The position numbers and the translations under genes are program-made. The notes under the pieces are model-generated. The model saw only the letters and a program-made list of their open reading frames with translations, ran no database searches and had not been told where the DNA came from. From Botryllus schlosseri (lineage: Eukaryota), in the NCBI GenBank assembly GCA_051294905.1, contig CM119371.1, forward strand, positions 17,362,001 through 17,426,000: a DNA stretch of 64,000 nucleotides. The letters are read 5' to 3'. Below are positions 2,341 to 27,500 of the stretch, piece after piece; position 1 is the first letter of the stretch; every line of letters starts with the position of its first letter.

Positions 2341-3118
2341 ATTATTATTATTATTTATTCTTTATTCACAGTAAAACTGGTAGATACACACATAATCCGG
2401 GGAGCAACCTGCCCCCAAAGGAAAATGGCGAGATTGGAGTAAATTTTTAAAATTTCAGTAATACATTCAAATTGTTATTCCTATGCAATACACGGAGAAG
2501 TCAGATTACAGAATTGCAGCAGATGAAGAATTGGCAAGGGTTACAGAGCAGAGGTAGAGATGATTGAAGATGAAGAATCGAAATTACAGAAATTATGCTG
2601 TGATTCACAAGCGTAATTTTAGTCCAGTGGTGCATTCAAGGCCTTCTGAAGAATGTGCACAGTGCCCAATAATGTGATCTTTTGGATCATGTCGAATCGA
2701 ACGTTACCCGGAATTTGTTGGATATGTCTCATGAGTTTTTTGCTCACGACCCCCGTAGCACCAATGACTATCGGTACAATGTTTATTTTGCATCGCCACA
2801 TTTTCTCACATTCCATTTTGAGGTCTGCGTATTTGGAGTATTTTTCTGATTCTTTTTGCAGTAGGTTGTGATCAGCTGGGACAGCCAGTTCAATGAATAA
2901 GCATTCTCTTTTCTTTTTTAGTTTGACGATTATATCCGGGCGGTTGCTCCTGATTTCGCGGTCAGTTATAACTGGTACATCCCACAGAATTTTTACTTGT
3001 TCGTTTTCTGTCACTGGTGCTGGGCTGTAATCGTACCAATTTTTTGTCGAAGTGGTGATGTTAAAATGTTTGCATAATTCAAGATGAATGTAGTGACCAA
3101 TCCTATTGTGTCTCCATG
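2341..3118 (-). mobile_element. 5'-truncated non-LTR retrotransposon with a restriction-like endonuclease (R4/Dong- or NeSL-like)
   Basis: ORF 2619-3146 has RHN..IH..LC, ILWD..TD...NRPDII, IELAVP and KESEK.SKY.DL motifs of the RLE domain; (TAA)n on both sides. Confidence 0.8.
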
Positions 3119-6100: not shown

Positions 6101-7432
6101 GGCTGAGAACCCCTGTTCTAGAGATACCTGTATCTCAGAAGCGATAGCTTCAATGTTCAGGTCACTTTGCCATAATGCAATGTCGTCGGCGTATAATCGG
6201 CAGTGTGAAGTCAGTGGCGGGGAGGTCGTTAATCATTACCGCGAAGAGTAAAGTACTGAGGACGCTTCCCTGGGCGATTCCGTTTTCCGTAATAAACGAT
6301 TCTGATAGTGTAGTACCGAGCCTTACGTGAAACGACCTGTCAGTGAGAAACTGGTTCAACCAATTCAAGATCTTACCTCGGACTCCTAATAGAAAAAGTT
6401 TGTGAATAACTGCTTGTCGCCAAACCGTGTCGTAGGCTTTCTTAATGTCGATGAACACTGCGATTGTGGAACGTCCGTTGTGAATTGCTTTGTAGACTTC
6501 ATCATGCAGAGCGAGTACATGATCGAGACACCTCCGACCACGTCGAAATCCACATTGAGAGGTATGAAGTAAATCGTTGGTTTCCAAAAACCAAGATAGA
6601 CGATGAGCGATCATAGATTCCATGACTTTACTGAAATGACTCGTTAGGGCGATTGGGCGGTATGAATTTGTAAGGGATGGGTCTTTATTTCCCTTCAATA
6701 TAGGAACAACTGTGGATTGTTTCAAGTCCGAGGGACTTGTCCAGAGTTCCAAGACTGGTTTATAATGTCTAACATGCCTGTCAAGCCAGATGTCGGCAAG
6801 TGCTTAAACATAGTATAGTTGATCATATCATTGCCAGGAGAATAGCTTTTTTTGGATTTGATGGCTTTAGTTAACTCATTTATCGTGAAAGGACAGTCTA
6901 ATTGGTGGTTGCTATTGTCGTTGATTAAATGTCCAATGGTTAGCTGTTGTCTCCTAAGTCTGAGTTCCTCTGAAAGTTGAGAGTTACTACTAACGCTTTC
7001 GAAAGCTTGGGCTATTGCATCTACTTTTTCCTTCTCTGACTTTACAGTACTTGTACCCACCTGTAGATCAGGGATTGCACCAGTTGTTCGTTTTCCGGAT
7101 ATGGATCGTGCAATATTCCAGACCTGCCGGAGGTTCGCCTTATTGCCGAGTGATTCACAGAACGCTTTCCATGATGACTTTTTTGCTTTCAATATTGTTC
7201 TCCGACAGAGTGAGCGAAGACGTTTGAACTCAATAATATGTTTGACGCCGAAAGTACGTTTCATCTTGAGGAAAGCAGCTTTCTTCCATCTGACGGCCCG
7301 ATCGCATTCTTCATTCCACCAGGGAACTGGGTTCTTTTTATGATTACGTTTCATTGGTATAGATATACTAGCCGCCTGGAATATTTTCTGTGTTAAGTTA
7401 TCACAAGCCTCATTAATGTTCGCCGACTTATA
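3119..7432 (-). mobile_element. 5'-truncated, frameshifted LINE with RT, RNase H and C-terminal zinc knuckle (I-group-like)
   Basis: PWWNEEC, YRPIALTS, QCGFR, DIKKAYD, QGSVLS, LYADD (about 6182-6196), KYLG; RNase H FTDGSK..WIPGH.GI.GNE.AD; CEHC..ETVEH..C; (TAA)n tail at 3119-3134; host paralogous sequence resumes near 7433. Confidence 0.92.
4874..6115. mobile_element. Non-autonomous hAT element inserted in the LINE RT
   Basis: TIR CAGGGGTTCTCA / TGAGAACCCCTG; perfect 8-bp TSD TTCTAGAG (4866-4873, 6116-6123). Confidence 0.92.
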
Positions 7433-9555
7433 TGCAGTGTGAAGTTGAGCCGAGCCAAAAATCGGCAGCACACTACAAGATGATACAGACGAACTAAAAA
7501 CGAGCTTGAACGATGATGGGAGAGCGCTAGCGTGGTAGTCGTCCGTAATATGACAAAAAGACCGCAAAAGACTCTGATCTTGCTGAAATGACCATGCTTG
7601 CGCCAATGTTTTGGATATAACAAGAACAAGCATACGTCTAACTTGATAAATAAAGTCGTTGTAGGAAATATTGGCTGCGTGTTATAAGTATGAAAACCAA
7701 ACAATGTCATAATCTAAATTTACTTTTCTTTCATCCTTACCAACTGAAAGTAGCTTGTAAAAGTTTGTCGAATGTTCCCTACTACTAGACATAGTGGGGT
7801 AGAATTCGGCGATAGCCATTGGGGGTGGTATCTGCAAGCGTGGAACGATCTGGCAGTCACTAATCTTGGTATTGGAGATGAGATGCAGTGGAATGAGGCG
7901 GTGGGCATGGTAGTTACTATGATGATTGAAATCATAGCAGTATAAGACTCTCAACGCCGCATTTCCTTTCCGCATATAAAGTCAAGAGTTTTATATCGTA
8001 ATCGGACTACAGTCGTGATCATATATATTGCACTTGATCATCTCCATTTCAGACGCGTCCCTCAAAACTATATCTAGTGCATTTCCATTTATTGATTCCG
8101 CAACAAATTATAACTCCCATCAACTTCCGTCGATGACCATCCATTTTTTAATCGTGGCATATCGTATTCTCAAAATCCAAAGTGTCAAAGCGCGCAACGC
8201 TACTAGTTAAAGAAAGAAGCTTTTGCAGGTAAAAATTTTGGATTCGCCAAAATAGCCTTGTCGATGGGTAAACGGAGATGTAGTGATGACTAAATCTAAT
8301 AATTTTTCTTCTACAGATAGGAATTGCGTAAAATTTGTTTTTTATCAGTTTTTAGACAACTCCACAATTTTATGGGGTTAACAGTAAAGTCTAACAAATT
8401 ATTTTATAGTAAATTGAAAGTTTCAAACTCTTGTGCGTCCACATCTACCTTGAAATTGAGCCAAATTTGTTGTGCAGCATTTTTAGGTAACCTAACAATC
8501 CATACAGTGAGTTCCCGGAATCCGGAGAAACGTTATTTTTGAACAATCCTACTGTGGGGGCATTGTCCGCAATCATTTGCAGCATGTGAAGAGACAGGCA
8601 TGTGACATGGTGTAATCGTGCTTTAACATAATTATTAGCTACCCGCTTGTACATGCAGTCGCATTGATGAAGAGCTACGGGTACGGATTCAAAAACCTAT
8701 AGTACAGTTCGGATATTATCAATTTAGGATGCTCTTGAATTATAGCATCAACCATCTAATATTTCTTGATCGATGGTGGGATATAGGCGATTCCATTGAC
8801 AAAATTCGTTTGTTCTTCGAAAGTATAGATAAATTGGATTAGCATAGAGCCATATACAAACATTACTCAATTGCGGTCCACTTATGATGAAATAAAACTG
8901 GTATCGCAATAGGGGGCAACATTGGGCGTGCATCGATCTCAAACATTCTCTTGAACCATCCAATTCACTATACTTCGGTCTATTATGATTCGTGTGATAG
9001 GTAGAAACGATGCCTGCACCACACATTGTTGCGTGAACGAATACCAGACAACATTACACTCTCAATTTACTTAATCGTCATCATTCCAAACTGAAAGTAG
9101 CCTGTAAATATTTGTCAAATGTTTGCTACCGTGGGATAGAGTCCGATTATTGCTATAACCATAGCATAGATAGACAGTAGTAGCTTGAAGTCTGAAAATA
9201 ATCTAACGCTCCATTATTTCAGTATTGAAGACAAGGTAGGACACATGTAAGCGAGTCAAGTGTCTGTTGATTTACTAAACGATTGCGAACGCCACGCGAG
9301 CTATAATCGGGATATCCTTTTATTCAGGGTTTACGAAGCCTAGAAAGCGTGAACTCGCAATGACGTTCCGGTAAAATATCATTGCTGAATAATTGCACTG
9401 AAGCAATGTGACCCGTCGTCTAATATATTGATTTCAAACAAGAACAGATATATACATCTGCTGGGGCATTCTTATCATTGCATATAGCACAGGCTACATC
9501 ATCATCTGAAATAAAACATGTTGAATTCAGAAAAACGTAGCAAGTACCAGTTACT
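7433..9555. repeat. Duplicated upstream block of the lectin repeat unit
   Basis: Colinear with about 40480-42336 and 62650-64000; partial diverged matches near 30480-30570 and 31880-32030. Confidence 0.85.
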
Positions 9556-12500
9556 ATGAATACGTTCTTGTGGTTTATTACTGGAGTTATATTATTCGCG
9601 AATTCAATTACCGCGTTGCCCCACGATGGTAATCAATTTCCCACCACCGAAGAGGTCATAGAGAGACTTTCTGAGTTGGAGCAGAGACTCTCCGATTTGG
9701 AATACCGCCTGAATTTGAAGATACTACAACACACAGGTAATCGTTTTAAGTCTTCACAACTTTAATAATTGTGTGTTTTCTTTCTTTCATCCATGAAATT
9801 CCATGTTTTCGAGATTATAATAATATTCATAGTCAACAGCTCTAATATTCGATCTATGCACGATACGATGCAGACGACACAATGCGATGTAACGACCAGA
9901 TAGGGGGATATCGAAACTACCAAGTACAGTCTCGCAATCTTACAACCACCTCGGTCTAATTCCCGATCTTTCATACCTTCTCTTTTTTGTATTAATAATA
10001 TTACTATTAATACGGTAAAAGTAGTAGTGGCGCTTATCTCTCATAAGGGCCTGGTGAGCCTCGATCCGTAATCATCTTCTGGTATAAGTTACTTCGAAAT
10101 ATAAGTCATCTTCGGCTATATACGGATCAAAAATTAAAGGAGTCTGTGAGATGATATCACGAATTCGTCCACAGGGTCTTCTTCATATGTAAGATTGCTG
10201 TATTTACTGATTCCTTTCATTTACTTTCCCTAGTCATTTTTCACCGGGTACTACTGTGACGTAAGAGGAGTAGGTAGGGCTGTGTTTAAAACAAAAATCA
10301 ATTTAAAATTGACTTGTTTGAGTCATGTGCTTTGATGTTTTTTCTTTTTTTTCCTATGCAATAACGACGCGCATATTCAATTGCGACGTCATAATGGATT
10401 GATATCCACAATTTAAAATATAGGGTAAATATAGGCCCGTTGACGAAATAGGCTTTCAATCTCTGTCACGATCATAAAATAGCTTTAACCAGGCTTGGGC
10501 TTCATCGTCTTGCAGCATTTTTACGGTCAGTGGTCATCATTATCAGAACATTTACTTCGTACCAATGATCTCTATTTACGAAAAGTAGTGAGGAGAAGCA
10601 ATTTTGTTGCACCCGGTCATATTGCAAAACGCCATCCCAGTTACTAAGCACATTTCACACCCGAAGGGTAAATTGTCCAAAAGTGATATCTGCTGGATAT
10701 GAACTAAGTTTGGTTGAGTATAATTTCACGGCGATCACCACTAGACTATCGCAAAGATTTGACGCTGCAAGCTGTTTTGAGAATATCAGTGCCGACCGAT
10801 TCACACATTCATATTTCGCGAATGCGACATGACAATAATAATTCATACGCTTTGGAGTAATAACTGAGTAATAAGGTCTTTCAAATTCTGCGTGAATCTC
10901 GCACGATCAAGTATTTAGTATGTTCGCTTTTTGTTTATGTATGTATATGTATATTGGCGATTGTGGTGCTTATAACTAGAGCCCGATCGATTATCGGTTC
11001 GCCGATAATATCGAGTCGATATCACACTGAGAAATAATTATTGGTATCGGTCATTGATGGTGAAAAAGTATCGGCAATATTTGTGACGTCACAACATGGT
11101 GGTAGTAAGTCAGAAACCTACAATCCTTGACCTCTAGACTGGTAAGATTGCTGTATTTCATATAGCTTCCACTTTCAAGGTGTCCAGATGCAGCCTTCCT
11201 AGTTTATTTCATGTTCGAATATGACAATGGCTGTAAAGCTGTTGATATGAATGCTCTGCAGTTTTGAAAATGCGCTTTTGAGGTAGATTCTACCTTATTT
11301 GATTATCGGCTGAATATATCGGTGTTATCGGTGAAGGTGTTAGATATTGGTTTTATCGGTATCGGCCCAAAAATCCGATATCGCTCGGGCTCCACTTATA
11401 ACAGCTACGGCTTTGTGCACCAGACCAAGGTGTTATAGGAATGTACACATAGGAATGCATTATAGTTGCCTCTTGGTTAGGAAATCAATCACTGGTAAAG
11501 TGGTGTAGTCGTAAGTAGTAGTATAGATCGCTCTGGGGGTGGCAGGGGTTCTTATGGGCGGGGTGGCATGCTAACGAGAAACCGGGGGTGGCATGCTAAC
11601 GTTTTCGTCTTATGGCGGGGGTGGCATGCTAACGTTTTCGTCTTATGGTGGGGGTGGCATGCTAACGTTTTCGTCTTATGGCGGGGGTGTCATGCTAACG
11701 TTTTCGTCTTATGGGTGCGGTCGCATGATAACGCGAAACTCGTGGTGACATGCTAACGTTTTCGTCTTATGGGTGCAGTCGCATGATAACGCGAAACTCG
11801 TGGTGACATGCTAATGTTTTTGGTATACGTGCGGCGACATGCTAACGACGATAAATGTGTCTGTCGTGTATTCTTACGGTATCTGTGGTGATTCACCATG
11901 TGTTCTTATGGGTGCGGTCGTGATTCGCACTTTCAGACATCTCTCGCGTGGTGTTGAATATGTACGAGTCACCAACAATAACCGCGCGGACGGAAACGTG
12001 GCTTGTTGCGAGGATTAAGCAGTGCGACCTATATTTCGAATGACCTGTGCGCTGAATTGTTGTCCGTACAGTTTTGTGCTACTATCGTATCGATTATTAC
12101 ACTAATCCAGTCGGTGCTATTACATTCAGCAGTATTCAGTATTCAGCAGCGACACGAAAAGCGAGCAACAAATAACCGCGCTCGTAAATTAACACTTCAA
12201 AAAGTGTAAAATAGATTGCAAATCCCGCGATCGCTAACAAGATAATGTCTCGAACATAACCATTTTTTAGTGACTTGGTGTTAAAGACATACCGATCGCT
12301 CACAAGGTAATATTGTCACAATAAGTTTGTCACAGAACCGGCGCAGACGGTGAGTCGTAAACCAACAATTTGACACTTTCTGGTGGTCGCTATATGTTTT
12401 GACACTTCGAACAGCGGCTGACTTTAGTTGCGCGATAAGAATTATGAGAATATTCAATCAATGTATCAATTTGCCAACTCGAAATGAAACTTACTACACA

Positions 12501-15500
12501 GCTCAAGTTGATTCGTATCTGAATGTGTTAATTCGGTACAATTCTAATTATTTCGAGAAATCTTTTCGTGATCTTTTGATTCGACCATAACCCGAATATT
12601 ACTGACACCGACTTTCAGCCACATTGAATTATTCGCACACCCGCGCCGCTGTTTTCACAACTATAACTCTACAAGAATCAAGAATCACAAGTATGTGCAT
12701 TATACAGTTATTGTCTTTATCAACATGAAATCAAACTCTTAACAAAAACACGCATCTTATCACTCGTCAACTCTATCATGAAAACCCTCGAGTCCTTATC
12801 ATCAAAACTGTTATAGCGCGGCGTCGGAATCCATTCGTGGGATGTACTAAAGGTAAATCCAAATAATCCAGAATGAAATATTTGGACTTTGACATTGTGT
12901 GAATTGGAATATGTTTAACAAACATGACTACCAACTTTCAACCAGTCACATTTCGAGATTATACGCATATTGATTTGAAACAAGTAATGAAACATTACAA
13001 CTCTATTCGCGACCTGTCTTTACGTTTGTCAAAGAGAGTTTCAGAAATATTATCACCATGACATCTCAACATTTTAACATCTTGCCACCAACAAAAGAGT
13101 AAAATACAAAAAACCTTGTCAAGTCAATCCGCTTGTAACTCACCGAACCAAAGCAAAAAGTGTCCATACGAAAAGTAGACAAGACTACGCAAGTAATCAC
13201 TAACCCACAAACATCAAGTTCGGTTTTAGGCATATACCACCAACTCGTCTTTTTTGTTCAACTGTAAAAGTCGTTACTAGGCCGCAAGACCAAGAAATTA
13301 CTATGCGGTATATTTTGTAAGACAAAAGTAATTACTTCTCGGTGTCGGCGACTTGAGATTAACATAATATATTTGAGTATACGACATTTGAAAGTATGAC
13401 CATCGTAGTTTCTTACAATCGACCGCAGGTGTTATATCGAAAATTATCGTGATGTAAACATAAGGATTGTCACATCGATTTAACATATGAGATTTTGTAA
13501 TGTTCTATCATGACTTGATTATTAAATTATGACATTATTAGACCAGAGTTGTGTTGAAGGTTATTTTGACATCAACAAACTTTTCAGTGCCATTGTTATT
13601 AACACATCGAGTTGTAAAACTATGCGTGTCTGAAATGTTCTTGAATGGAAAATTATTCCACCTTGGTACATATCACCCTGCGTATCGCGGATATCAGAAA
13701 ATATTTTACAAATGTAATTGTCTCCACTAACCAAGACTAAAGATGAAACAACAATTTCCTTTGTTAAACAATAACCGGTACAATACTTTATCATCGTAAT
13801 CGGCAGTGAGAATTGAAACACTTTCGCACATTATCCAGCGTCAAGATATCACACTAGGTGAATTGACATACCGCCGCTTGATTAATACCTAATCCATTCG
13901 CACCATTTCACATACTTTGATCATTACAAAAGTAAACTGGAATATGTTTGCTAGATGCATTCAATTCAGTTACAAATGTCTGTTACACAACAATCGTAAT
14001 ATCGAGGAAGTACTTGCTACACTGTAATTCACTTAACGTGTTTTGTATTGTTGTTCATTTGTAGTATTGATTGTTTTTGAACCCCCAAATAATAATTCCC
14101 GACATGAGACCAAACCACCGAAAGTCGTTATACCACCACAACGAAACAATTTGTACGATGTTTGCCAAATGTATCCTCTAGTTAGGTGTACTAGAATTAT
14201 TTGTCTAACACATACACCGACAATGCAACCGAAAATTTTTCCGTTATCATTCGCTAAAGTAAATGTCATCACAATACTCATCAAGCTGTCATCTGTAAAT
14301 CAAGATTACATCCAACTTGTAACTGTATCGTTTAACTACCGGGCTGCATCAGTTTGCTATTTTTGTCATTTAGTGACTGCTGAACATACCGAACGATACA
14401 CAGTCACTTCGAAATACTCCGTTGATCGTAATTTCCATCATCATAATAATCGAAGTACAATTGTTTCGAATCGCTGGAGTGGTTGAGCTTTACATCATCA
14501 GACTGCCATCTGTACATCAAGAATACATCCGAGTTGTAACTGTGTCGTTTACCTAACCGAGTTGTATGCACCGTTTGATATTTAGCGATTGCTGAACATA
14601 CCACCTCGAAATACTGCGTTGATCTCAATTCCTTTGTCGTGACAATCGAAGTACATTTGTTTCGATTTCATAAAAACCAACTTTTCTATGACATGATAAA
14701 TTTTTGAAAAGTTATGCTTAGAAGATTGGTGCATCTCGCGAAAAACTAATATACCACTCATATTGATACTGTTACTCCATTGACCGGTATTTTCAAACGA
14801 GTCGATTTTCAACTGAGCAAAATTTATTACTTGAGTTGTCCCGCTTACTATATTTAAATGTAAACTCACCCGTCTTTCAACAACAAAGACATGGATAAAA
14901 AGTACACAAGCAAACACAACAAGTTTTACTTTTGTTGGACACCAATTATTATTCCACGCATCTCATTTCATACTAAGTGTATATGAAAGATATTCATGGC
15001 ACACGAAAATATTCGATATTCCATGCTACGAACATACACAATGATTGGTGACGCTTTCACACTATTTCGATTTAGTGTAACAAAAACAACAACAACAATT
15101 TTCGCTGTCTTGACTTATGAAAACAACAGACGAACCTTCATTCAATATTTTGTTTTTGTCAACTAGTTACTTTTTCATGAGACCCCCACAACTCTTACAG
15201 ACGTACGAAAGATATTTACATCACACAAAGTAATCAACTTTACTCGATGTTCTCACATTACGAAACTAAAGAATGGTTGGTTTGACTCTACAAACTGTTT
15301 CGTCACCTCAAGAACTTTATTGTCTGAATGGTTGTTCATGTGTCTTAAGAACCAAATAGTTCAACACAGCACTAGTACCAACAGAAACATCAGAGTTGTT
15401 TACACAAAAGTTTGTATGTGTACAGTATGTGAATACCATGTGTAAGTCCAGCACAATTGTGGTATCCATCCGGGTTTAGTTAACACAATTTACGACACCG

Positions 15501-18500
15501 AGGTCGCCTCATCTTTCGTAAGACAACAAACCAACCAAGGCTTCAGGATATGTCCATGTCATAGCAATACATCAGCTACTCCAACAACAGAGTACATACG
15601 TTTTCTAGTTACGGTGCTTACATCTTACACACAAATCAATCTACTTTGCTAACAAAAAGTGCTGAGTCATCAAGTGATTGTCCTCACAACAATACAACTA
15701 AAACATACTAACATACAAAATGATCGTTATAGTTTGCACCCCAACGATACATCGTAAAAGTATCAAGTTTCAAGAATCGAGTTATTGAAAAACGTGAAAG
15801 TGTTTCTCCTGCGTCAAGTCGTTATGTTGATGAAAGTGTATATTGTAATATCATGATCAATTTGCATTCGTTGGTCACAAACTGTCACTACTCTAAATAA
15901 TTATTTTTCACTCAAACACAACAGCATACTTGTCGCCATTCGTTTTCATCAAGCACGAGTTCAAGAAACTTACTTACTACGACATGAATTGATATTTTTA
16001 TGATGTGTAAATACGTAATAATTAATTTTAGTAACACTATATCAACATCATCGAGTTGTGCGAATAGATTTTCATGTGGTCTTGCGGTTTTAATCGAAGC
16101 ACACATCATGGTCTAATGTAGAGTCGTCTCTATTGTACAACAACTCGGTAATCGAAATGCATGCATTAACATTTGAACAACGATCTTGTTTCGTCGCACC
16201 AAAAACATGTTCACTGTCACAATACTCTGCACAAGACGTGGAAATCCTTTTCACCCTCATAATAGTATACCAACGACCACCGACGACAACGTTTAACAAT
16301 ACCAACGACACTGGAAACACTGAACCCACGACACTTACCCGAGTAAAAACACATTTTCCTTTGGCTACATGGCGCTTACCAGAGTAAAAAATATCATTAT
16401 CACCTGGAGATCCACCGTTACCCGAGCAACAAAACCATTTTCCTTTGGAGATCTATCGTTTACCCAGTGTAACAATACATTTTCACATGGCGATCCATCG
16501 TTTACCCAAAGTAACAAAACCATTTTCACTTGCAAATATATTTTTCCCTGGGTTACAAACCATTTTCACTTGCAAATATATTTTTTCCCTGGGTAACAAA
16601 CCATTTTCACTTGCAAATATATTTTTTCCCTGGGTAACAAACCTTTTTCTCTTGGTAACAAACCTTTTTCACTTGGAAATATATTTTTTCTCTTGGTAAC
16701 AAACCTTTTTCACTTGGAAATCTATTTTTCCCAGGGTAACAAACCTTTTTCACTTGCAAATATATTTTTCCCCCTGGGTAACAAACCTTTTTCGCTTGGA
16801 AATATATTTTTTCCTTGAGCAACAGACCATTTTTACTTGGAAATATATTTTTTCCTTGAGCAACAGACCATTTTTACTTGGAAATATATTTTTTCCCTGA
16901 GCAACAAACCATTTTTACTTGGAAATATATTTTTTCCCTGAGCAACAAACCATTTCACTCGGCGGGTCGTCGTTTACCTGAGTAAAAATATCATTTTCCT
17001 TTGGAGATCTGGCGTTTACCCATTGTAACAATACATTTTCACTTGGAAATCTATCTTTTCCCTGGGTAACAATACCATTTTCGTTTTGAAAACTGACAAC
17101 CACACCGGTCAATTTGATATTTTTTGTATATTGTTACAACAGACAGCGACAAAATATACACCAACAACGACTCCGATACATTTGTCTAATCAAATATTCA
17201 CTTGCTCTGATGCATCCCATCAAAATCATTGGTTACTCACATACAATAACAATGTGCTGTTGTACATCGACATGTATGTTTTCGGAATTGGTGAATAAAG
17301 GGGTTTCCGATATGTCAGTGATGTCCGGGTTCGTGCTTTGGATTTTCCAGAGTCAAAATGTCTGAATAAAACACCTCCTCGACTTTGGTAACTGGTTGAT
17401 ACACGGATAATGGTGTTCGGAAAACGGATGAATTTATGTTCCCCATCGCGCTGACAACATCGGGTTACTTGTGAGTTTCCCCGGGTCTGTTTACTATATT
17501 GTGTCTTTACTGGTCAATACATGTCGCTCCAGTCAGCTGAAACCGGATCACCAATATGAGAAAGTGTGGGGGCCGGATCCGGATATTCACTCATGACCCA
17601 ACGACCGATATTCAAGTAAACATGTTACAGACCGTGTTTTGTCTCCATGAAAAATACCTATGCATACACCATCACATACAAGTAACGTCACGATTGTTCA
17701 CAAGTATTCGCGTGAACGACGTATACATACAATGTGTCGGTGTACAAACATCATGGAAAACAAATTCATGTTCTCAAGTCTCATCATGCGACGACTCTGT
17801 GGGTATAGATGACTTGGAGACAGGCAAGCAGCCATATTTGGACGTAACATGGTCTTAGTTTGAACCGACTTCCACCCAACTTGTGAAAAATCAATCTCAC
17901 ACGAGTACAGCCCTTTCACGGATTCACACCTTGATTTTGTAAGATTGTTCGGATTCTCAGGTAGACTTGTATCGTGATCCAGACTTCGACATAATCGGAT
18001 TGCGTAACTCGCTCAATCCCTCCGCGTATTGTTCGTCCTAACCTGCGAACTTTTTTGCTGAGGCCGCAGTGTTTCACATGGTATAATGTATTTGGCGATC
18101 ACCATCGTTATCAATCTTTCACGCGATGAATATGTCAGATGTCGCTACTCCCACATAACGACTACAGATAAACATCGTGAGCAGTGACTCCGGATTGGAA
18201 TCGTAAACAGAGACTCTCTGTGTGTGTGTGTGTGAATCTCGAGTTCGATTACGATTAGATAATGTAATCCAAGGTGTGTCTCTGTGAGTTGAAGGCTTAT
18301 TTCGTGTTAATCACACCGCAAGAGGGAGCTATCTCGTAATTCTATAGGTCGTTATAAAACGCGGTTGGAAACTTTCGGTCTAGTTGATCCAGCTACGTAT
18401 TGAAACGGTGCACCCACACAAACCATTGAGAAAACGTTGTCGTAACCTAACCATATCCACGAGTAAATATGGGACTACGCGTAACTGTCCATAGATTCCT

Positions 18501-21500
18501 TTGGCCCCACGCCGTGGTTTTACGACACAGACAAGATGCGGCAGTGGAAATATTAAAAATGAAAAACGATACCTTGGTGACATTTGATTTGGATTTTACA
18601 CCTGATGAACCATACACTCGATTGGTACATTGGGAGGACAACTCTATCGTCGAGGTCAAGGGAAAAGAAATGTACAGATTTGTTGGTGTTGTGGATATTC
18701 AGCGAAAATCAGGGTATATGGTTGTATATGGTTCGCATATTTGACTGAGAATATATCGGTATGCATAATGCACTATCCGTTGTATCATGTCGTGTGTCAT
18801 CTATACCCACAGAGTCGTCGCATGATGAGACTTGAGAACATGAATTTGTTTTCCATGATGTTTGTACACCGACACATTGTATGTATACGTCGTTCACGCG
18901 AATACTTGTGAACAATCGTGACGTTACTTGTATGTGATGGTGTATGCATAGGTATTTTTCATGGAGACAAAACACGGTCTGTAACATGTTTACTTGAATA
19001 TCGGTCGTTGGGTCATGAGTGAATATCCGGATCCGGCCCCCACACTTTCTCATATTGGTGATCCGGTTTCAGCTGACTGGAGCGACATGTATTGACCAGT
19101 AAAGACACAATATAGTAAACAGACCCGGGGAAACTCACAAGTAACCCGATGTTGTCAGCGCGATGGGGAACATAAATTCATCCGTTTTCCGAACACCATT
19201 ATCCGTGTATCAACCAGTTACCAAAGTCGAGGAGGTGTTTTATTCAGACATTTTGACTCTGGAAAATCCAAAGCACGAACCCGGACATCACTGACATATC
19301 GGAAACCCCTTTATTCACCAATTCCGAAAACATACATGTCGATGTACAACAGCACATTGTTATTGTATGTGAGTAACCAATGATTTTGATGGGATGCATC
19401 AGAGCAAGTGAATATTTGATTAGACAAATGTATCGGAGTCGTTGTTGGTGTATATTTTGTCGCTGTCTGTTGTAACAATATACAAAAAATATCAAATTGA
19501 CCGGTGTGGTTGTCAGTTTTCAAAACGAAAATGGTATTGTTACCCAGGGAAAAGATAGATTTCCAAGTGAAACGGTATTGGTACTCGGGTAAACGACAGA
19601 TTTCCAAGTGAAAATGTATTGTTACAATGGGTAAACGCCAGATCTCCAAAGGAAAATGATATTTTTACTCAGGTAAACGACGACCCGCCGAGTGAAATGG
19701 TTTGTTGCTCAGGGAAAAAATATATTTCCAAGTAAAAATGGTTTGTTGCTCAGGGAAAAAATATATTTCCAAGTAAAAATGGTCTGTTGCTCAAGGAAAA
19801 AATATATTTCCAAGTAAAAATGGTCTGTTGCTCAAGGAAAAAATATATTTCCAAGCGAAAAAGGTTTGTTACCCAGGGGGAAAAATATATTTGCAAGTGA
19901 AAAAGGTTTGTTACCCTGGGAAAAATAAATTTCCAAGTGAAAAAGGTTTGTTACCAAGAGAAAAAATATATTTCCAAGTGAAAAAGGTTTGTTACCAAGA
20001 GAAAAAGGTTTGTTACCCAGGGAAAAAATATATTTGCAAGTGAAAATGGTTTGTTACCCAGGGAAAAAATATATTTGCAAGTGAAAATGGTTTGTAACCC
20101 AGGGAAAAATATATTTGCAAGTGAAAATGGTTTTGTTACTTTGGGTAAACGATGGATCGCCATGTGAAAATGTATTGTTACACTGGGTAAACGATAGATC
20201 TCCAAAGGAAAATGGTTTTGTTGCTCGGGTAACGGTGGATCTCCAGGTGATAATGATATTTTTTACTCTGGTAAGCGCCATGTAGCCAAAGGAAAATGTG
20301 TTTTTACTCGGGTAAGTGTCGTGGGTTCAGTGTTTCCAGTGTCGTTGGTATTGTTAAACGTTGTCGTCGGTGGTCGTTGGTATACTATTATGAGGGTGAA
20401 AAGGATTTCCACGTCTTGTGCAGAGTATTGTGACAGTGAACATGTTTTTGGTGCGACGAAACAAGATCGTTGTTCAAATGTTAATGCATGCATTTCGATT
20501 ACCGAGTTGTTGTACAATAGAGACGACTCTACATTAGACCATGATGTGTGCTTCGATTAAAACCGCAAGACCACATGAAAATCTATTCGCACAACTCGAT
20601 GATGTTGATATAGTGTTACTAAAATTAATTATTACGTATTTACACATCATAAAAATATCAATTCATGTCGTAGTAAGTAAGTTTCTTGAACTCGTGCTTG
20701 ATGAAAACGAATGGCGACAAGTATGCTGTTGTGTTTGAGTGAAAAATAATTATTTAGAGTAGTGACAGTTTGTGACCAACGAATGCAAATTGATCATGAT
20801 ATTACAATATACACTTTCATCAACATAACGACTTGACGCAGGAGAAACACTTTCACGTTTTTCAATAACTCGATTCTTGAAACTTGATACTTTTACGATG
20901 TATCGTTGGGGTGCAAACTATAACGATCATTTTGTATGTTAGTATGTTTTAGTTGTATTGTTGTGAGGACAATCACTTGATGACTCAGCACTTTTTGTTA
21001 GCAAAGTAGATTGATTTGTGTGTAAGATGTAAGCACCGTAACTAGAAAACATATGTACTCTGTTGTTGGAGTAGCTGATGTATTGCTATGACATGGACAT
21101 ATCCTGAAGCCTTGGTTGGTTTGTTGTCTTACGAAAGATGAGGCGACCTCGGTGTCGTAAATTGTGTTAACTAAACCCGGATGGATACCACAATTGTGCT
21201 GGACTTACACATGGTATTCACATACTGTACACATACAAACTTTTGTGTAAACAACTCTGATGTTTCTGTTGGTACTAGTGCTGTGTTGAACTATTTGGTT
21301 CTTAAGACACATGAACAACCATTCAGACAATAAAGTTCTTGAGGTGACGAAACAGTTTGTAGAGTCAAACCAACCATTCTTTAGTTTCGTAATGTGAGAA
21401 CATCGAGTAAAGTTGATTACTTTGTGTGATGTAAATATCTTTCGTACGTCTGTAAGAGTTGTGGGGGTCTCATGAAAAAGTAACTAGTTGACAAAAACAA

Positions 21501-24500
21501 AATATTGAATGAAGGTTCGTCTGTTGTTTTCATAAGTCAAGACAGCGAAAATTGTTGTTGTTGTTTTTGTTACACTAAATCGAAATAGTGTGAAAGCGTC
21601 ACCAATCATTGTGTATGTTCGTAGCATGGAATATCGAATATTTTCGTGTGCCATGAATATCTTTCATATACACTTAGTATGAAATGAGATGCGTGGAATA
21701 ATAATTGGTGTCCAACAAAAGTAAAACTTGTTGTGTTTGCTTGTGTACTTTTTATCCATGTCTTTGTTGTTGAAAGACGGGTGAGTTTACATTTAAATAT
21801 AGTAAGCGGGACAACTCAAGTAATAAATTTTGCTCAGTTGAAAATCGACTCGTTTGAAAATACCGGTCAATGGAGTAACAGTATCAATATGAGTGGTATA
21901 TTAGTTTTTCGCGAGATGCACCAATCTTCTAAGCATAACTTTTCAAAAATTTATCATGTCATAGAAAAGTTGGTTTTTATGAAATCGAAACAAATGTACT
22001 TCGATTGTCACGACAAAGGAATTGAGATCAACGCAGTATTTCGAGGTGGTATGTTCAGCAATCGCTAAATATCAAACGGTGCATACAACTCGGTTAGGTA
22101 AACGACACAGTTACAACTCGGATGTATTCTTGATGTACAGATGGCAGTCTGATGATGTAAAGCTCAACCACTCCAGCGATTCGAAACAATTGTACTTCGA
22201 TTATTATGATGATGGAAATTACGATCAACGGAGTATTTCGAAGTGACTGTGTATCGTTCGGTATGTTCAGCAGTCACTAAATGACAAAAATAGCAAACTG
22301 ATGCAGCCCGGTAGTTAAACGATACAGTTACAAGTTGGATGTAATCTTGATTTACAGATGACAGCTTGATGAGTATTGTGATGACATTTACTTTAGCGAA
22401 TGATAACGGAAAAATTTTCGGTTGCATTGTCGGTGTATGTGTTAGACAAATAATTCTAGTACACCTAACTATAGGATACATTTGGCAAACATCGTACAAA
22501 TTGTTTCGTTGTGGTGGTATAACGACTTTCGGTGGTTTGGTCTCATGTCGGGAATTATTATTTGGGGGTTCAAAAACAATCAATACTACAAATGAACAAC
22601 AATACAAAACACGTTAAGTGAATTACAGTGTAGCAAGTACTTCCTCGATATTACGATTGTTGTGTAACAGACATTTGTAACTGAATTGAATGCATCTAGC
22701 AAACATATTCCAGTTTACTTTTGTAATGATCAAAGTATGTGAAATGGTGCGAATGGATTAGGTATTAATCAAGCGGCGGTATGTCAATTCACCTAGTGTG
22801 ATATCTTGACGCTGGATAATGTGCGAAAGTGTTTCAATTCTCACTGCCGATTACGATGATAAAGTATTGTACCGGTTATTGTTTAACAAAGGAAATTGTT
22901 GTTTCATCTTTAGTCTTGGTTAGTGGAGACAATTACATTTGTAAAATATTTTCTGATATCCGCGATACGCAGGGTGATATGTACCAAGGTGGAATAATTT
23001 TCCATTCAAGAACATTTCAGACACGCATAGTTTTACAACTCGATGTGTTAATAACAATGGCACTGAAAAGTTTGTTGATGTCAAAATAACCTTCAACACA
23101 ACTCTGGTCTAATAATGTCATAATTTAATAATCAAGTCATGATAGAACATTACAAAATCTCATATGTTAAATCGATGTGACAATCCTTATGTTTACATCA
23201 CGATAATTTTCGATATAACACCTGCGGTCGATTGTAAGAAACTACGATGGTCATACTTTCAAATGTCGTATACTCAAATATATTATGTTAATCTCAAGTC
23301 GCCGACACCGAGAAGTAATTACTTTTGTCTTACAAAATATACCGCATAGTAATTTCTTGGTCTTGCGGCCTAGTAACGACTTTTACAGTTGAACAAAAAA
23401 GACGAGTTGGTGGTATATGCCTAAAACCGAACTTGATGTTTGTGGGTTAGTGATTACTTGCGTAGTCTTGTCTACTTTTCGTATGGACACTTTTTGCTTT
23501 GGTTCGGTGAGTTACAAGCGGATTGACTTGACAAGGTTTTTTGTATTTTACTCTTTTGTTGGTGGCAAGATGTTAAAATGTTGAGATGTCATGGTGATAA
23601 TATTTCTGAAACTCTCTTTGACAAACGTAAAGACAGGTCGCGAATAGAGTTGTAATGTTTCATTACTTGTTTCAAATCAATATGCGTATAATCTCGAAAT
23701 GTGACTGGTTGAAAGTTGGTAGTCATGTTTGTTAAACATATTCCAATTCACACAATGTCAAAGTCCAAATATTTCATTCTGGATTATTTGGATTTACCTT
23801 TAGTACATCCCACGAATGGATTCCGACGCCGCGCTATAACAGTTTTGATGATAAGGACTCGAGGGTTTTCATGATAGAGTTGACGAGTGATAAGATGCGT
23901 GTTTTTGTTAAGAGTTTGATTTCATGTTGATAAAGACAATAACTGTATAATGCACATACTTGTGATTCTTGATTCTTGTAGAGTTATAGTTGTGAAAACA
24001 GCGGCGCGGGTGTGCGAATAATTCAATGTGGCTGAAAGTCGGTGTCAGTAATATTCGGGTTATGGTCGAATCAAAAGATCACGAAAAGATTTCTCGAAAT
24101 AATTAGAATTGTACCGAATTAACACATTCAGATACGAATCAACTTGAGCTGTGTAGTAAGTTTCATTTCGAGTTGGCAAATTGATACATTGATTGAATAT
24201 TCTCATAATTCTTATCGCGCAACTAAAGTCAGCCGCTGTTCGAAGTGTCAAAACATATAGCGACCACCAGAAAGTGTCAAATTGTTGGTTTACGACTCAC
24301 CGTCTGCGCCGGTTCTGTGACAAACTTATTGTGACAATATTACCTTGTGAGCGATCGGTATGTCTTTAACACCAAGTCACTAAAAAATGGTTATGTTCGA
24401 GACATTATCTTGTTAGCGATCGCGGGATTTGCAATCTATTTTACACTTTTTGAAGTGTTAATTTACGAGCGCGGTTATTTGTTGCTCGCTTTTCGTGTCG

Positions 24501-27500
24501 CTGCTGAATACTGAATACTGCTGAATGTAATAGCACCGACTGGATTAGTGTAATAATCGATACGATAGTAGCACAAAACTGTACGGACAACAATTCAGCG
24601 CACAGGTCATTCGAAATATAGGTCGCACTGCTTAATCCTCGCAACAAGCCACGTTTCCGTCCGCGCGGTTATTGTTGGTGACTCGTACATATTCAACACC
24701 ACGCGAGAGATGTCTGAAAGTGCGAATCACGACCGCACCCATAAGAACACATGGTGAATCACCACAGATACCGTAAGAATACACGACAGACACATTTATC
24801 GTCGTTAGCATGTCGCCGCACGTATACCAAAAACATTAGCATGTCACCACGAGTTTCGCGTTATCATGCGACTGCACCCATAAGACGAAAACGTTAGCAT
24901 GTCACCACGAGTTTCGCGTTATCATGCGACCGCACCCATAAGACGAAAACGTTAGCATGACACCCCCGCCATAAGACGAAAACGTTAGCATGCCACCCCC
25001 ACCATAAGACGAAAACGTTAGCATGCCACCCCCGCCATAAGACGAAAACGTTAGCATGCCACCCCCGGTTTCTCGTTAGCATGCCACCCCGCCCATAAGA
25101 ACCCCTGCCACCCCCAGAGCGATCTATACTACTGTCGTACAATGTTTATGGGCACATGGCTTCGTAGTGTTATGTCCTTGAAATAGTTACGCTGCGAGCT
25201 ATATCGAGAACATTGAAGCAAGAAATGCCCAACCGTCTTTATAAGCCACATGTTGCACAAAGGCCATCATCGGGACAGCCAATTTTATGTAAGTGTCCGT
25301 CCGGCTTGCAATGCCCAGTCTGCAGCCGCAAGAATATCGCTGTTTCCGTTCTCGATAGTCCAGTATCTGCGGGATATTGTTTGTTTTTTGGGGTATTCAT
25401 GGTATTTGTCGACTACTATGGTCATTTACACCAGGCCGATATTCTTCTTATTTTCCGTAACTGCCGACTTATAGCACGGCCCACCTCTAGGCTTTTGTAA
25501 GACACCGCTGACGCGGATGAGGTGGCGAGGAGGAGTCTGCGGGATATCATGTGCGGTGTAAATTCGCTTGTAGAGATTTTGGAATAATTTGTTTCCAATT
25601 TGTTTTTCCATCTTCTGTGAGTCGGTTCTTTGATAATTATTATAGATTATGGTAGGGAAATTGGGATGCCACTGGATAATCGTTGTGTTGGAAATGTAGT
25701 AGCATCCTTGGCGAGTTTATCGGCGATACCGCCGAATTTAGCCCCGCGGTGACCTGGAATCCAAATAAATGCAATATTTATCCTAGGACTGTCAAGATAT
25801 CTGCAGCAAATTAAAGTATCATCGACTATAGCGCATACATTACTGGTTTTACGAGCTTGGAGCATATAGTTAAGGCGCTCAAACTATCTGATAAAACAGC
25901 AACCCCGCAAGTATGTATGGGTCCTCGGCGCACGACAACAATTATCCAATTAGGAGTCACGTCTATACCTAGTGATTCTGCTGTCAGGATAGATATCCTG
26001 ACATTAAGGGAGGATCCGTGCGAAACCTCGAAAGATTTAATATAAAAACCGACGCCACGTACCTTCCGCATAAACGTGCAATCTATCCCTGTAGCTAGCG
26101 TATATATATTCTCCACTAGTTTGTTTGATGATTTCCGGGTGATATGAGTTCTTCCTATGTCTATAGTACATCCGTGCTTTTAGCAAGGCGCCACGGCGGA
26201 TGGTCCTATTTTCTTGATGTAGAGATCTACGAGCCCGTTTCTGGTAATTATATTAAACGTAATAACATTCGCAGAATCTGTCAAGATTTCTTGCCAGGCT
26301 TCTTCGACCAGGGCTGCACATTTTTTTTTTTTTTGCAAGAGGATTGATGCGTGGAAATTCATGCATGCATGGTAATGTTGTAAATGTATTGGAGCTTCGC
26401 AACACGTGCGGTGTCGTAGCCATAGCTTCCGTGCACATCCGAGAGCTGTATTTTGTATCTTCTGGATAGTCTGCGCCACGGACTTCGTGGACATGAATAT
26501 GCTTCGAAACCATACTCTATAATTGGACGTATTAGAGCTCTATACAGTGACAGTAGACATGCCGTTGAGGCCCCCACGTCGGTCCGCGTAGTACTCGCAG
26601 TGTTGGGATGACTCGAGTCATGACTTCACTCGAGTCAAACTCGAGTCACCTTTTTCTTATGACTTGACTCGACTCGAGTCACTTTGCTAAAATGACTTGA
26701 CTTGACTTGACTCGGCGTATCGAAAATGTGGATTGACTCGTGACTCGGAGCAAAATCCACGAGTCAATTTCGAGTCATCAAGCAATCGATGTCGATAAAA
26801 TTCATTGTATCTTGGATATGTTCGAATTGTACGCGAAACCCTGGTGTAACCCATGAGAGCCCATGATCGTGCGTTTTACTCAGCCTCCATTGTTCTCTCA
26901 CAAATAAATTGATCGCAAACGAAGTGATCGGAGCTCACAGCTTACGTTGTCGTAAAGTAGTACGGTAAAGGAATTTATTAGCAAAATGTCTATTTCTGTT
27001 CTCTGTTCCTAACTTAACCAAACCTCTTGTTTAATTGAAATTGAACGCATATATAGGTATATAGTCCTCAATCATCGGAGCAGGCTGGAATTGTATCATA
27101 TCAATTTGTAAATCGATAATATACTGCATCTTATCAATTCGTTGTATATTGAGTTGTATATTAATAATGAGATAATTGTGTACATACTTTCGAAAAGCAT
27201 GTGGTATAAGCCTATGAAAGATTTGTATATGATATATTCGTCGTACACGATATGGCATGGTTGAAACCCTCGAAATCGTGGTCGGTTCAACAATTACAGC
27301 ACGTATAGATCATTGGTATTGAATGGGTGTTCTGATGATGATTACCGCCGACCTTAATAATGTTGCATAACGACGTAGTCGTGGCTTCACGTAAATATAT
27401 TTTTTGTCCGTTTACTACAATGGTCGGAAACCTATTTCGTCAAAGAAGCCATACTTACGCCACAACTCCAAATGTCGATGTCGATCCAATGTGGCGTTAC

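Follow-up and report, generated by a model that had tools for sequence, protein, structure and literature searches.

The window analyzed here is a stretch of 64,000 nucleotides from Botryllus schlosseri, and an element of 13.6 kb (the window copy), 93% of which is inverted repeat, is found at positions 11514–25133. The element is flanked by a perfect 6-bp target site duplication (TSD), GTCGTA, which was read from the sequence at 11508–11513 on the left and at 25134–25139 on the right. The left arm (11514–17813, plus strand, 6300 nt) starts with (AGT)3, and the right arm (18796–25133, minus strand, 6338 nt) ends with (ACT)2, one AGT unit below the left. The left end reads AGTAGTAGTATAG... and the right end reads ...CTATACTACT. 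A repeat search returned the segment pairs 11517–17080/19570–25133 (5564 nt) and 17025–17813/18796–19584 (789 nt), both at 100%, with 982 nt in between. The left arm was aligned using MAFFT with the reverse complement of 18796–25133, and the two arms were found to differ by three substitutions (14178/22472, 15599/21051, and 16722/19928; 3 of ~6297), by one terminal AGT, and by one 41-bp repeat unit that is present at 19573–19613 of the right arm only. The arms, the 982-bp spacer, and the arm differences listed in the preliminary description were exact to the base, and the AGT-repeat ends and the TSD were also as reported there.

The outermost segment of the left arm (11514–12116, plus strand) is homologous to the terminal inverted repeats (TIRs) of a resident autonomous Polinton, here called the helper, with 93% identity over ~600 bp and 97% over element positions 33–558. 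Within it are subterminal tandem repeats (11583–11820, plus strand) with a 33-bp unit repeated 4.6 times and a 58-bp unit repeated 2.3 times, which the helper TIR has too. The mirror of this segment lies at 24534–25133 (minus strand), with the 33- and 58-bp repeats at 24830–25067. Further inside the left arm, a 74-bp patch (12679–12752, plus strand) is 80% identical to helper sequence just inside the left TIR only, and its mirror copy lies at 23898–23971 (minus strand) of the right arm. Tandem arrays of 41/42 bp occur close to the inner end of the left arm (16379–17091, plus strand) and in the right arm (19527–20315, minus strand). The unique center (17814–18795, 982 bp) is 92–98% identical in 40 other scored copies and contains a gene that is conserved in the satellite, a 91-codon ORF followed by a TGA stop (18469–18744, plus strand).

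An empty site in a putative paralogous intron had been proposed near 43860, and the flank alignments do meet there, at 43829–43865 of the paralogous segment 40473–44469. The alignment of the left flank ends at 11499, opposite 43829, and that of the right flank starts at 25138, opposite 43865, with 76–88% identity; the paralogue has 35 bp where the window copy has 13.6 kb. Judging from their high word depth and from nearby reverse-transcriptase ORFs, the flanks seem to be repetitive. Short Logan contigs from four public runs were also inspected, and none of these crosses the empty site or a junction of the element or spans its full length. A low-depth contig of run X5 matches the left flank as far as 11507, where it continues into 66 letters that were not placed adjacent to it.

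Gene Content of the Window Copy

No pPolB, integrase, or capsid gene was found in the window copy with the ORF list or with tblastn, in keeping with the earlier remark that no core gene was evident. The arms contain no ORF of more than 149 aa. The 10 ORFs of the helper, used as tblastn queries against the window copy, gave only noise at E ≤ 1, and no remnants of helper genes were detected in the arms by tblastn and tblastx beyond the subterminal patch. The helper DNA that can be recognized in each arm amounts to ~0.6 kb plus the 74-bp patch, and ~5 kb per arm, the inner part, is without detectable homology to the helper. Searches of the element for RNA genes gave 0 matches to Rfam and 0 tRNAs.

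The center gene, which had escaped the preliminary description, is predicted to encode a conserved 91-aa protein that is kept by purifying selection, as indicated by a dN/dS of 0.2–0.3. Across subfamilies with the palindromic architecture, the divergence of this gene corresponds to a dS of 0.7–1.0. A search of the whole library with the protein returned three matches at E ≤ 0.001, only one of them being genuinely related (91 aa, 73%). No match was found in Pfam and no usable match in the ESM atlas. The AlphaFold2 model, built from five sequences, has a pLDDT of 43.9, which is too poor for a structure search. A BLASTP match (27% over 70 aa, pairwise E 3e-5) had suggested that the center gene derives from part of the helper ATPase, and this origin was rejected by profile–profile comparison (probability 0.35%, E 0.17).

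The Resident Autonomous Polinton

Three autonomous copies (B, D, and G) of 16.3–17.3 kb, with TIRs of 688–763 bp, were characterized. One helper ORF matches DNA_pol_B_2 with 34.9 bits (cut-off 25.8), and another, of 359 aa, contains rve (2e-16) and Chromo (2e-9) domains. The helper capsid protein is predicted to have a double jelly-roll fold (model pLDDT 87.6), and Foldseek aligned it to the major capsid proteins of iridovirus, PBCV-1, Sputnik, and mavirus with E values of 1e-16 to 1e-12. The candidate for a packaging-type Walker-A ATPase is weak, with matches below the Pfam cut-offs only. For helper protein p218, atlas features (0.93–0.95) offer a lead, and only a lead, to an OB-fold single-strand-binding protein; Pfam (E ≤ 10) and PDB sequences gave no support for this fold, and the homologue search yielded one close match.

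Of the pPolB matches scored in the genome, 31/36 contain no stop codon; these numbers, like all counts of scored matches given here, are minimum values. A scan of the genome with PF03175 returned 0 matches, a false negative of an insensitive scan, since the helper ORF matches PF03175 directly. The preliminary description had considered a giant non-autonomous Polinton as one possibility and had called for a search for an autonomous Polinton with the same terminus. Such an element does reside in the genome. Over positions 33–558 the window copy matches each TIR of helper copy D at 97%, and over positions 1–603 its identity to the helper is 93%; the 6-bp TSD is common to both kinds of element, and the exact 30-mer terminus of the window copy bounds the element C13:14623778–14640427, which encloses an intact 1295-aa pPolB match and a left-end match.

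A Family of Palindromic Copies

The pattern of the terminal 20-mer was found 422 times in the forward and 412 times in the reverse orientation (0 and 1 for the control), and a 23-mer from the center was found 461 times (240 + 221; 0/0 for the control). By the 23-mer count alone, the satellites would constitute ~1.3% of the 495-Mb genome (461 × 13.6 kb, by arithmetic). The palindromic design recurs at many loci, every copy with its own 6-bp TSD. Other copies with different TSDs, which the preliminary description had proposed to look for, are thus numerous, and the TSD was perfect in 15 of the 15 family elements checked, helpers included.

Seven non-autonomous copies were compared in full, with copy C being only nearly full-length. 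Within a copy, the arms are 98.1–99.98% identical overall; the values for copies I, J, A, H, and C were determined to be 99.94, 99.95, 99.89–99.98, 99.88, and 98.1–99.1%, respectively. In copy H, one inner block of the arms is only 96.6% alike. The arms of different copies are 75–90% identical, so that copies differ by 10–25%; the nearest relative found for the window copy is 97–98% identical. The length of the non-autonomous copies is tight at ~13.6 kb, ~82% of the helper, even where the split between arm and spacer changes, a compensation seen in three copies only.

The autonomous copies have one left and one right end. Nine non-autonomous copies were informative about the type of end, and in all nine the helper sequence that extends past the TIR comes from one and the same end on both arms. 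Left/left ends were found in the window copy, in C, in H, and in four copies known by their ends only; in the window copy the end-specific sequence is just the 74-bp patch. Right/right ends were found in I (824 bp, 97.5%) and J (813 bp, 96%), and these two copies carry one helper gene twice. Nine further right/right pairs occur among the 40 best matches of the right-end probe. Homotypic ends are a signature of copy-back or panhandle symmetrization.

Origin and Propagation of the Satellite

Our best explanation, with a probability of roughly 75%, is that segment 11514–25133 is one copy of an abundant, non-autonomous, and nearly fully palindromic satellite family of the resident autonomous Polinton/Maverick. 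We consider it very probable that the satellite depends on the helper, because it shares the terminal ~600 bp, the AGT ends, and the 6-bp TSD of the helper and lacks the helper genes. The shared ends and the copy number suggest that the helper moves the satellite in trans. For the mobility, replication, and packaging of the satellite, the following mechanism is drawn from structure alone. The rve–chromo integrase of the helper would insert the satellite and generate the 6-bp TSD. The protein-primed polymerase of the helper would copy it from the AGT-repeat ends, where slide-back in 3-nt steps could leave one end a unit shorter than the other. In strand-displacement replication, the strand set free would fold back on itself, and the 5′ arm would serve as the template on which its 3′ end is repaired or extended (panhandle or copy-back). 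The two arms, along with any newly acquired helper ends, would be made identical in every cycle and would diverge slowly once inserted. A 1–3-bp terminal repeat and a single-stranded, racket-like intermediate have been described for Polintons in the part of the source available (PMC4196379).

The preliminary description had envisaged template switching that copied one end of a Polinton back on itself. As a recurrent process at the level of the family, copy-back agrees with the homotypic ends of all nine informative copies. As a single accident of the helper, integrated at the window locus, it would account for the palindromic shape and for near-identical arms that end in helper sequence, and it is nevertheless refuted by the copy number, with the center found 461 times; in addition, diverged subfamilies (center gene dS 0.7–1.0) have inherited the same architecture. 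That the helper contributed the ends stands; for the arms as a whole, descent from a copied-back helper end is traceable only outside the ~5 kb per arm in which no helper homology was detected. Chimeric long reads can produce palindromes, and the chance that one arm was falsely duplicated in the assembly is negligible: three substitutions and a 41-bp unit distinguish the arms, the 982-bp center is conserved, and many other loci have the same design with a 6-bp TSD of their own, which excludes chance as well as an assembly artifact. A foldback transposon from an unrelated cut-and-paste superfamily, with a mere resemblance to Polinton ends, would account for the shape, the internal tandem arrays, and the missing Polinton genes. 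FB and Galileo elements have TSDs of 7–9 bp and are moved by cut-and-paste transposases. This origin is highly improbable given that ~600 bp are 93–97% identical to the TIRs of Polintons that carry genes, that the 30-mer terminus is identical, and that the 6-bp TSD is found in helpers and satellites alike.

We put the odds that replication-linked symmetrization, rather than chromosomal gene conversion between the arms, keeps the arms alike at about even. Long inverted repeats are generally homogenized by gene conversion, and if this is the case here the palindromy is uninformative on replication. All of the arm identities measured are compatible with gene conversion, which could also carry a new end to the opposite arm if it acted before the next jump. 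However, the arms of C are just 98.1–99.1% alike and the inner block of H 96.6%, so homogenization in place is not universal, and gene conversion gives no account of why a new left- or right-type helper end is always on both arms of transposed elements. We regard it as the weaker candidate. It is rather unlikely that the main effect of the palindrome is a hairpin RNA, formed by read-through, whose double-stranded product matches the helper ends and silences the helper. The perfect long arms with 0.6–1.6 kb of helper sequence, the helper gene included in right/right copies, and an apparent likeness to transposon-derived hairpin silencers would suit such a role, whereas hundreds of TSD-flanked copies and a selected gene point to a self-propagating element and not to a host locus. 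A hairpin-RNA effect could coexist with the satellite explanation.

For the satellite family, a limit set by packaging in the helper capsid may lie behind the length of ~13.6 kb (~82% of the helper). This packaging constraint is a tentative proposal, and the size peak could simply be the heritage of a 13.6-kb founder. A further, speculative reading takes the satellites for naturally occurring mini-genomes, recorded in the germ line, that depend on a polintovirus as their helper and are packaged in its capsids, with their symmetry remade in each round by panhandle or copy-back repair and with the 91-aa loop protein as a satellite-specific replication or packaging factor. If true, this would explain the constancy of the ~13.6-kb length despite a shifting arm/spacer split, and each copy would be a fossil record of a single protein-primed, strand-displacing replication round of the Polinton.

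To our knowledge, neither protein-primed replication nor virions of Polintons have been shown experimentally in animals. In the part of the source available, adenovirus/phi29-like protein-primed replication and virion formation of Polintons rest on bioinformatic inference (PMC4196379), and in the literature searched on palindromic or non-autonomous Polintons and on adenovirus parallels, no such element is described. The satellite family provides structural evidence on the replication mode and virion formation of Polintons, in that several hundred dependents keep their halves in lock-step, have ends that appear to be renewed from either helper end on both sides, and hold their length. Non-autonomous Polintons can outnumber their helpers and keep a selected gene of their own. 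The divergence of the arms could be used as an insertion clock for satellite copies, and snap-back DNA and nuclease-protected 13.6-kb palindromes offer objects for testing.

Comparison with Known Systems

The window copy resembles an autonomous Polinton/Maverick in its (AGT)n ends, with three units on the left and two on the right, its perfect 6-bp TSD, and its terminal inverted repeats, and differs in having no pPolB, rve integrase, or capsid gene and a 91-aa gene of its own instead. It has the ends and the TSD of a resident autonomous element and no transposition genes, as is characteristic of a non-autonomous derivative. For vertebrate Mavericks, the available part of the source gives an (AGT)2 end motif, a 6-bp TSD, and TIRs of 46–1447 bp with a mean of 402 (PMC8097293); the inverted repeat of the window copy is 6.3 kb, occupies 93% of the element, and belongs to a family of several hundred copies. 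Where the Polinton norm is TIRs of ~0.05–1.5 kb around a gene-bearing body of 15–20 kb (PMC4196379, PMC8097293, excerpts), the window copy has 6.3-kb arms around 982 bp in a total of 13.6 kb. The butterfly polintons, with gene-bearing TIRs of ~2 kb, also have long inverted repeats that duplicate genes, as in copies I and J; they stay gene-complete between the TIRs, whereas in the satellite the repeat takes up nearly all of the element and the core genes are lost (bioRxiv 10.1101/2025.02.07.637071, in part).

Foldback transposons such as Drosophila FB and Galileo consist mostly of inverted repeat, with tandem arrays, little coding sequence, and arms that are more alike within a copy than between copies (PMC3573991, in part). 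The window copy, with 93% inverted repeat and arrays of 33, 41, and 58 bp, is foldback-like in shape only; unlike elements with FB-, P-, or MULE-type partners, it has Polinton ends and a 6-bp TSD. In adenovirus replication, a hairpin end converts one-ended monomers to replicating and packaged tail-to-tail dimers (PMC2518115, in part). These hybrid-vector dimers would share with the satellite a protein-primed, strand-displacing replicon, an inverted two-origin structure, helper dependence, and a packageable size, and differ in that the satellite arm is mostly not helper-derived (PMC2518115). Adenovirus dimers and copy-back genomes are, in the parts of the sources available, laboratory or infection products, whereas the satellite is integrated in the germ line, ancient, and diversified, with a selected gene (PMC2518115, PMC13506859). 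De novo origin during helper replication, and interference with it, are traits of copy-back genomes; the satellite family is inherited and old. Yeast killer plasmids have palindromic deletion derivatives of a replicon with a terminal protein and terminal inverted repeats. Those derivatives are cytoplasmic, with neither integration nor a TSD, whereas the satellite is integrated and flanked by a TSD.

Structure and Insertion Site of the Element

The 13.6-kb element (11514-25133) was found by a repeat search of the window to contain two perfect inverted blocks, 11517-17080/19570-25133 and 17025-17813/18796-19584, with 982 nt between them, which confirms the inverted arms and the spacer of the preliminary description. 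Global alignment of the left arm (11514-17813) with the reverse-complemented right arm (18796-25133) gave 47 differing columns. These are accounted for by three substitutions (14178/22472, 15599/21051, and 16722/19928, left/right), a 41-nt unit confined to the right arm (19573-19613), and one additional AGT at the left terminus, and the differences listed earlier were thus complete. The left end reads (AGT)3TATAGATC... and the right end, reverse-complemented, (AGT)2TATAGATC...; the reported 6-bp TSD, GTCGTA, can be read at both ends. Segment 40473-44469, a duplicate of 7433-11499 plus 25138-26003 (76-89% identity), is colinear with both flanks and is the source of the empty site, which was verified as 35 bp (43830-43864) where the window copy holds the element.

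The flanks are repetitive in appearance, as judged by word depth in public contigs, with reverse-transcriptase ORFs nearby, and the host sequence at the insertion may be part of a repeat instead of an intron. A domain search located ORFs with RVT_1 and RNase H on the minus strand at 2619-7681, just upstream of the duplicated flank. Directly after the paralogous empty-site segment, LTR-retrotransposon-type ORFs on the plus strand (44697-50126) carry a zinc knuckle, RVT_1 with RNase H, and an integrase zinc-binding domain with rve. At 25102-25622 public contigs give a summed word depth far above that of the element itself, which suggests that another very abundant repeat directly adjoins the right end.

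Helper Polintons

Over positions 33-558 the element has 97% identity with each TIR of copy D of the helper, an autonomous Polinton/Maverick of the same genome, and over positions 1-603 it has 93% identity with helper D. The exact 30-mer terminus of the window copy, which occurs 14 + 13 times in the genome, also bounds C13:14623778-14640427 (16.65 kb), a locus where the polymerase match is intact (1295 aa) and where the unique sequence of the helper left end is matched as well. A translated search of the window arms recovered no remnants of the ten ORFs of D, the arms have no ORF of more than 149 aa, and neither Rfam families nor tRNAs were found in the element. Since helper-type ends are present without helper genes, the element is a non-autonomous derivative; the shared ends suggest that it depends on these helpers.

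Helper copies B, D, and G, which have the ends of the window copy and lengths of 16.3-17.3 kb, contain long ORFs, and their TIRs span only 688-763 bp. Pfam searches of D matched a 1297-aa ORF to DNA_pol_B_2 (34.9 bits vs a cutoff of 25.8) and a 359-aa ORF to rve (2e-16) and Chromo (2e-9), while a 217-aa ORF has a Walker A motif and is matched weakly by AAA and Pox_A32, in every case below the Pfam cutoff. Animal homologues of a 432-aa ORF carry the name "F54H12.2-like", and its predicted fold (pLDDT 87.6) resembles the double jelly-roll major capsid proteins of iridovirus, PBCV-1, Sputnik, and mavirus (Foldseek E values of 1e-16 to 1e-12). When the genome was searched with the helper polymerase, all 36 matches scored among 390 candidates were 92-100% identical, and 31 of these had no stop. 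The polymerase, integrase, and capsid ORFs and the mostly stop-free frames indicate that copies of the B, D, and G type are Polintons/Mavericks that bear genes and appear intact. In size, TIR length, end motif, and 6-bp TSD they fall within the norms given in the accessible portions of PMC8097293, PMC4196379, PMC3014272, and PMC4028283. The proposed Polinton attribution is therefore borne out by the common ends, the 6-bp TSD, and the gene-bearing helpers, and the autonomous partner with a common terminus that it called for was found in D and at C13:14623778-14640427.

Two polymerase forms were observed among the 36 scored loci. The matches at 26 loci are 1295-1300 aa long; those at the other 10 begin at query residue ~157, with open frames of 1212-1242 aa, and the first ~80 residues are matched separately just upstream. 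A 218-aa gene adjoins the right TIR of the helper (L028:6276-6929 in D) and recurs in sister copy I (L057:1021-1662 and its mirror); a resemblance of its product to OB-fold/RPA-type single-strand-binding proteins is seen in atlas features only.

Family Size and Arm Identity

In the 495.5-Mb assembly that contains the window, the terminal 387 bp of the element matched many loci, in +/- pairs with spacings of 12-16 kb. The terminal 20-mer pattern occurred 422 times forward and 412 times in reverse (reversed control, 0 and 1). From the first 100 termini listed, 42 adjacent +/- pairs could be formed, 23 of them 12,995-14,110 bp long. A perfect 6-bp TSD was found in all 15 elements with both ends readable (the window copy, 8 pairs, and 6 further elements), so the further copies with such TSDs anticipated earlier do exist. 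CG occupies the two central TSD positions in 10 of the 15, which suggests NNCGNN as a target preference. In X5, a public sequencing run labelled as another species, contigs match both flanks with ~99% identity and the arms and loop gene, which they cover in part, with ~96-99%; a very close relative thus also has the family.

Full or nearly full sequence was read for seven non-autonomous copies (the window copy and sister copies A, C, F, H, I, and J). The arms were compared directly in six, and all six are palindromic. Within-copy arm identity is 99.95% for the window copy, 99.94% for I, 99.95% for J, 99.89-99.98% for A, 99.88% for H, and 98.1-99.1% for C, whereas between-copy identity is 75-90%, for the alignable parts only; the nearest relatives found have 97% (arm) and 98% (centre) identity. 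Each arm is thus far more similar to its partner in the same copy than to the arms of other copies. Arms can drift apart, as copy C shows, and palindromy is both inherited and actively maintained in the family. The right arm of copy C is interrupted at L026 6302-7315 by a 338-aa ORF whose reverse-transcriptase motif is of the YVDD type; this is a nested retroelement, and it explains the 19-kb length of this copy.

At 17800 and 18809 of the window, loose contig ends were observed, where other members continue with different, mirrored sequence; the arm/centre boundary thus varies among copies, as the 332-bp centre of copy I also shows. The window copy measures 13,620 bp in total, I 13,703 bp, and J 13,583 bp, yet the length is divided differently between arms and centre (6.3-kb arms with a ~980-bp centre vs 6.7-kb arms with a 332-bp centre). 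These three copies and the size peak weakly suggest that element length is constrained, possibly by capsid packaging.

The centre contains a 91-codon ORF (18469-18741, stop 18742-18744) that is open in 19 of 21 aligned copies; pN/pS is 0.30 in its own frame, compared with 0.55 and 3.1 in the two alternative frames. In a genome search with the 91-aa sequence, 149 of the 150 matches scored, from 1200 candidates, lacked a stop. The gene is present in five of the seven copies, being missing from H and I, and is central in the diverged subfamilies F, A, and C (71, 62, and 59% amino-acid identity). The proteins align without indels, 49 of 91 positions are invariant, and dN/dS is 0.21-0.34 at a dS of 0.7-1.0. 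A library of 1.84 billion proteins contained one relative outside the family of this genome.

Helper Ends Carried on Both Arms

Beyond the TIR boundary the two ends of the helper are unique. The window copy has left-type sequence on both arms (12679-12752 and 23898-23971; 74 bp at 80%), as do C and H (about 170 bp, 72%) and four copies known only from their terminal ~1.9 kb: C2:17295730, C11:12635783, C4:20120004 (162 bp at 96%), and C1:38196562 (at least 500 bp at 96-97%). Right-type sequence is present on both arms of I (824 bp at 97.5%) and J (813 bp at 96%) and includes an intact helper 218-aa gene in each arm. Nine of the 11 non-autonomous copies examined were informative, and all nine are homotypic (seven left/left and two right/right), whereas autonomous copies are left/right; the other two are A, where the patch is just 66 bp long and lies close to an internal TIR-like repeat, and F, which lacks one. 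Among the best 40 of 681 candidate matches to a right-end probe, 18 make nine inverted pairs 11-15 kb apart, and many of the remaining 22 coincide with autonomous copies; the best 40 matches to a left-end probe are all single. Copy I has the outer 420 bp of the window copy at 99.5%, yet its subterminal segment is right-type, which indicates that ends were exchanged among lineages and then symmetrised.

Proposed Mechanism

In adenovirus, replication is initiated by protein priming with slide-back. The one-unit difference between the AGT-repeat ends of the element fits initiation of this kind, which would start at the trinucleotide repeats and has been proposed for Polintons in the accessible part of PMC4196379. 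The 6-bp TSD and the shared ends suggest that the helper integrase inserts the element. When a near-perfect palindrome is replicated by strand displacement, its displaced strand would form a 6.3-kb hairpin. Repair on this hairpin, or extension of the 3' end, would render the arms identical and reproduce a newly gained end on the opposite arm. Such a process could account for both the near-identical arms and the homotypic ends. Chromosomal gene conversion is a serious rival for the homogenisation of the arms.

The preliminary description had proposed a copy-back genome at this locus. As a one-off event this is wrong, since a 23-mer from the centre occurs 240 + 221 times in the genome (control 0/0) and sister copies are palindromic. 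As a recurrent process of the family, copy-back or end symmetrisation is supported by the nine homotypic copies.

Comparison with Known Systems

An experimental counterpart to the proposed mechanism comes from adenovirus replication, which, according to the accessible part of PMC2518115, turns one-ended adenovirus-based vector monomers with a hairpin-forming end into tail-to-tail dimers, and such dimers replicate and are packaged. Our full-text search of article main texts brought up no account of non-autonomous Polintons that are palindromic or high in copy number, and non-autonomous copies were apparently absent from a lizard survey (PMC3014272, accessible part). The family is a natural record of Polinton replication and has real value as such. 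The nearest published case, from the accessible part of bioRxiv 10.1101/2025.02.07.637071, is that of butterfly polintons with gene-bearing TIRs of ~2 kb.
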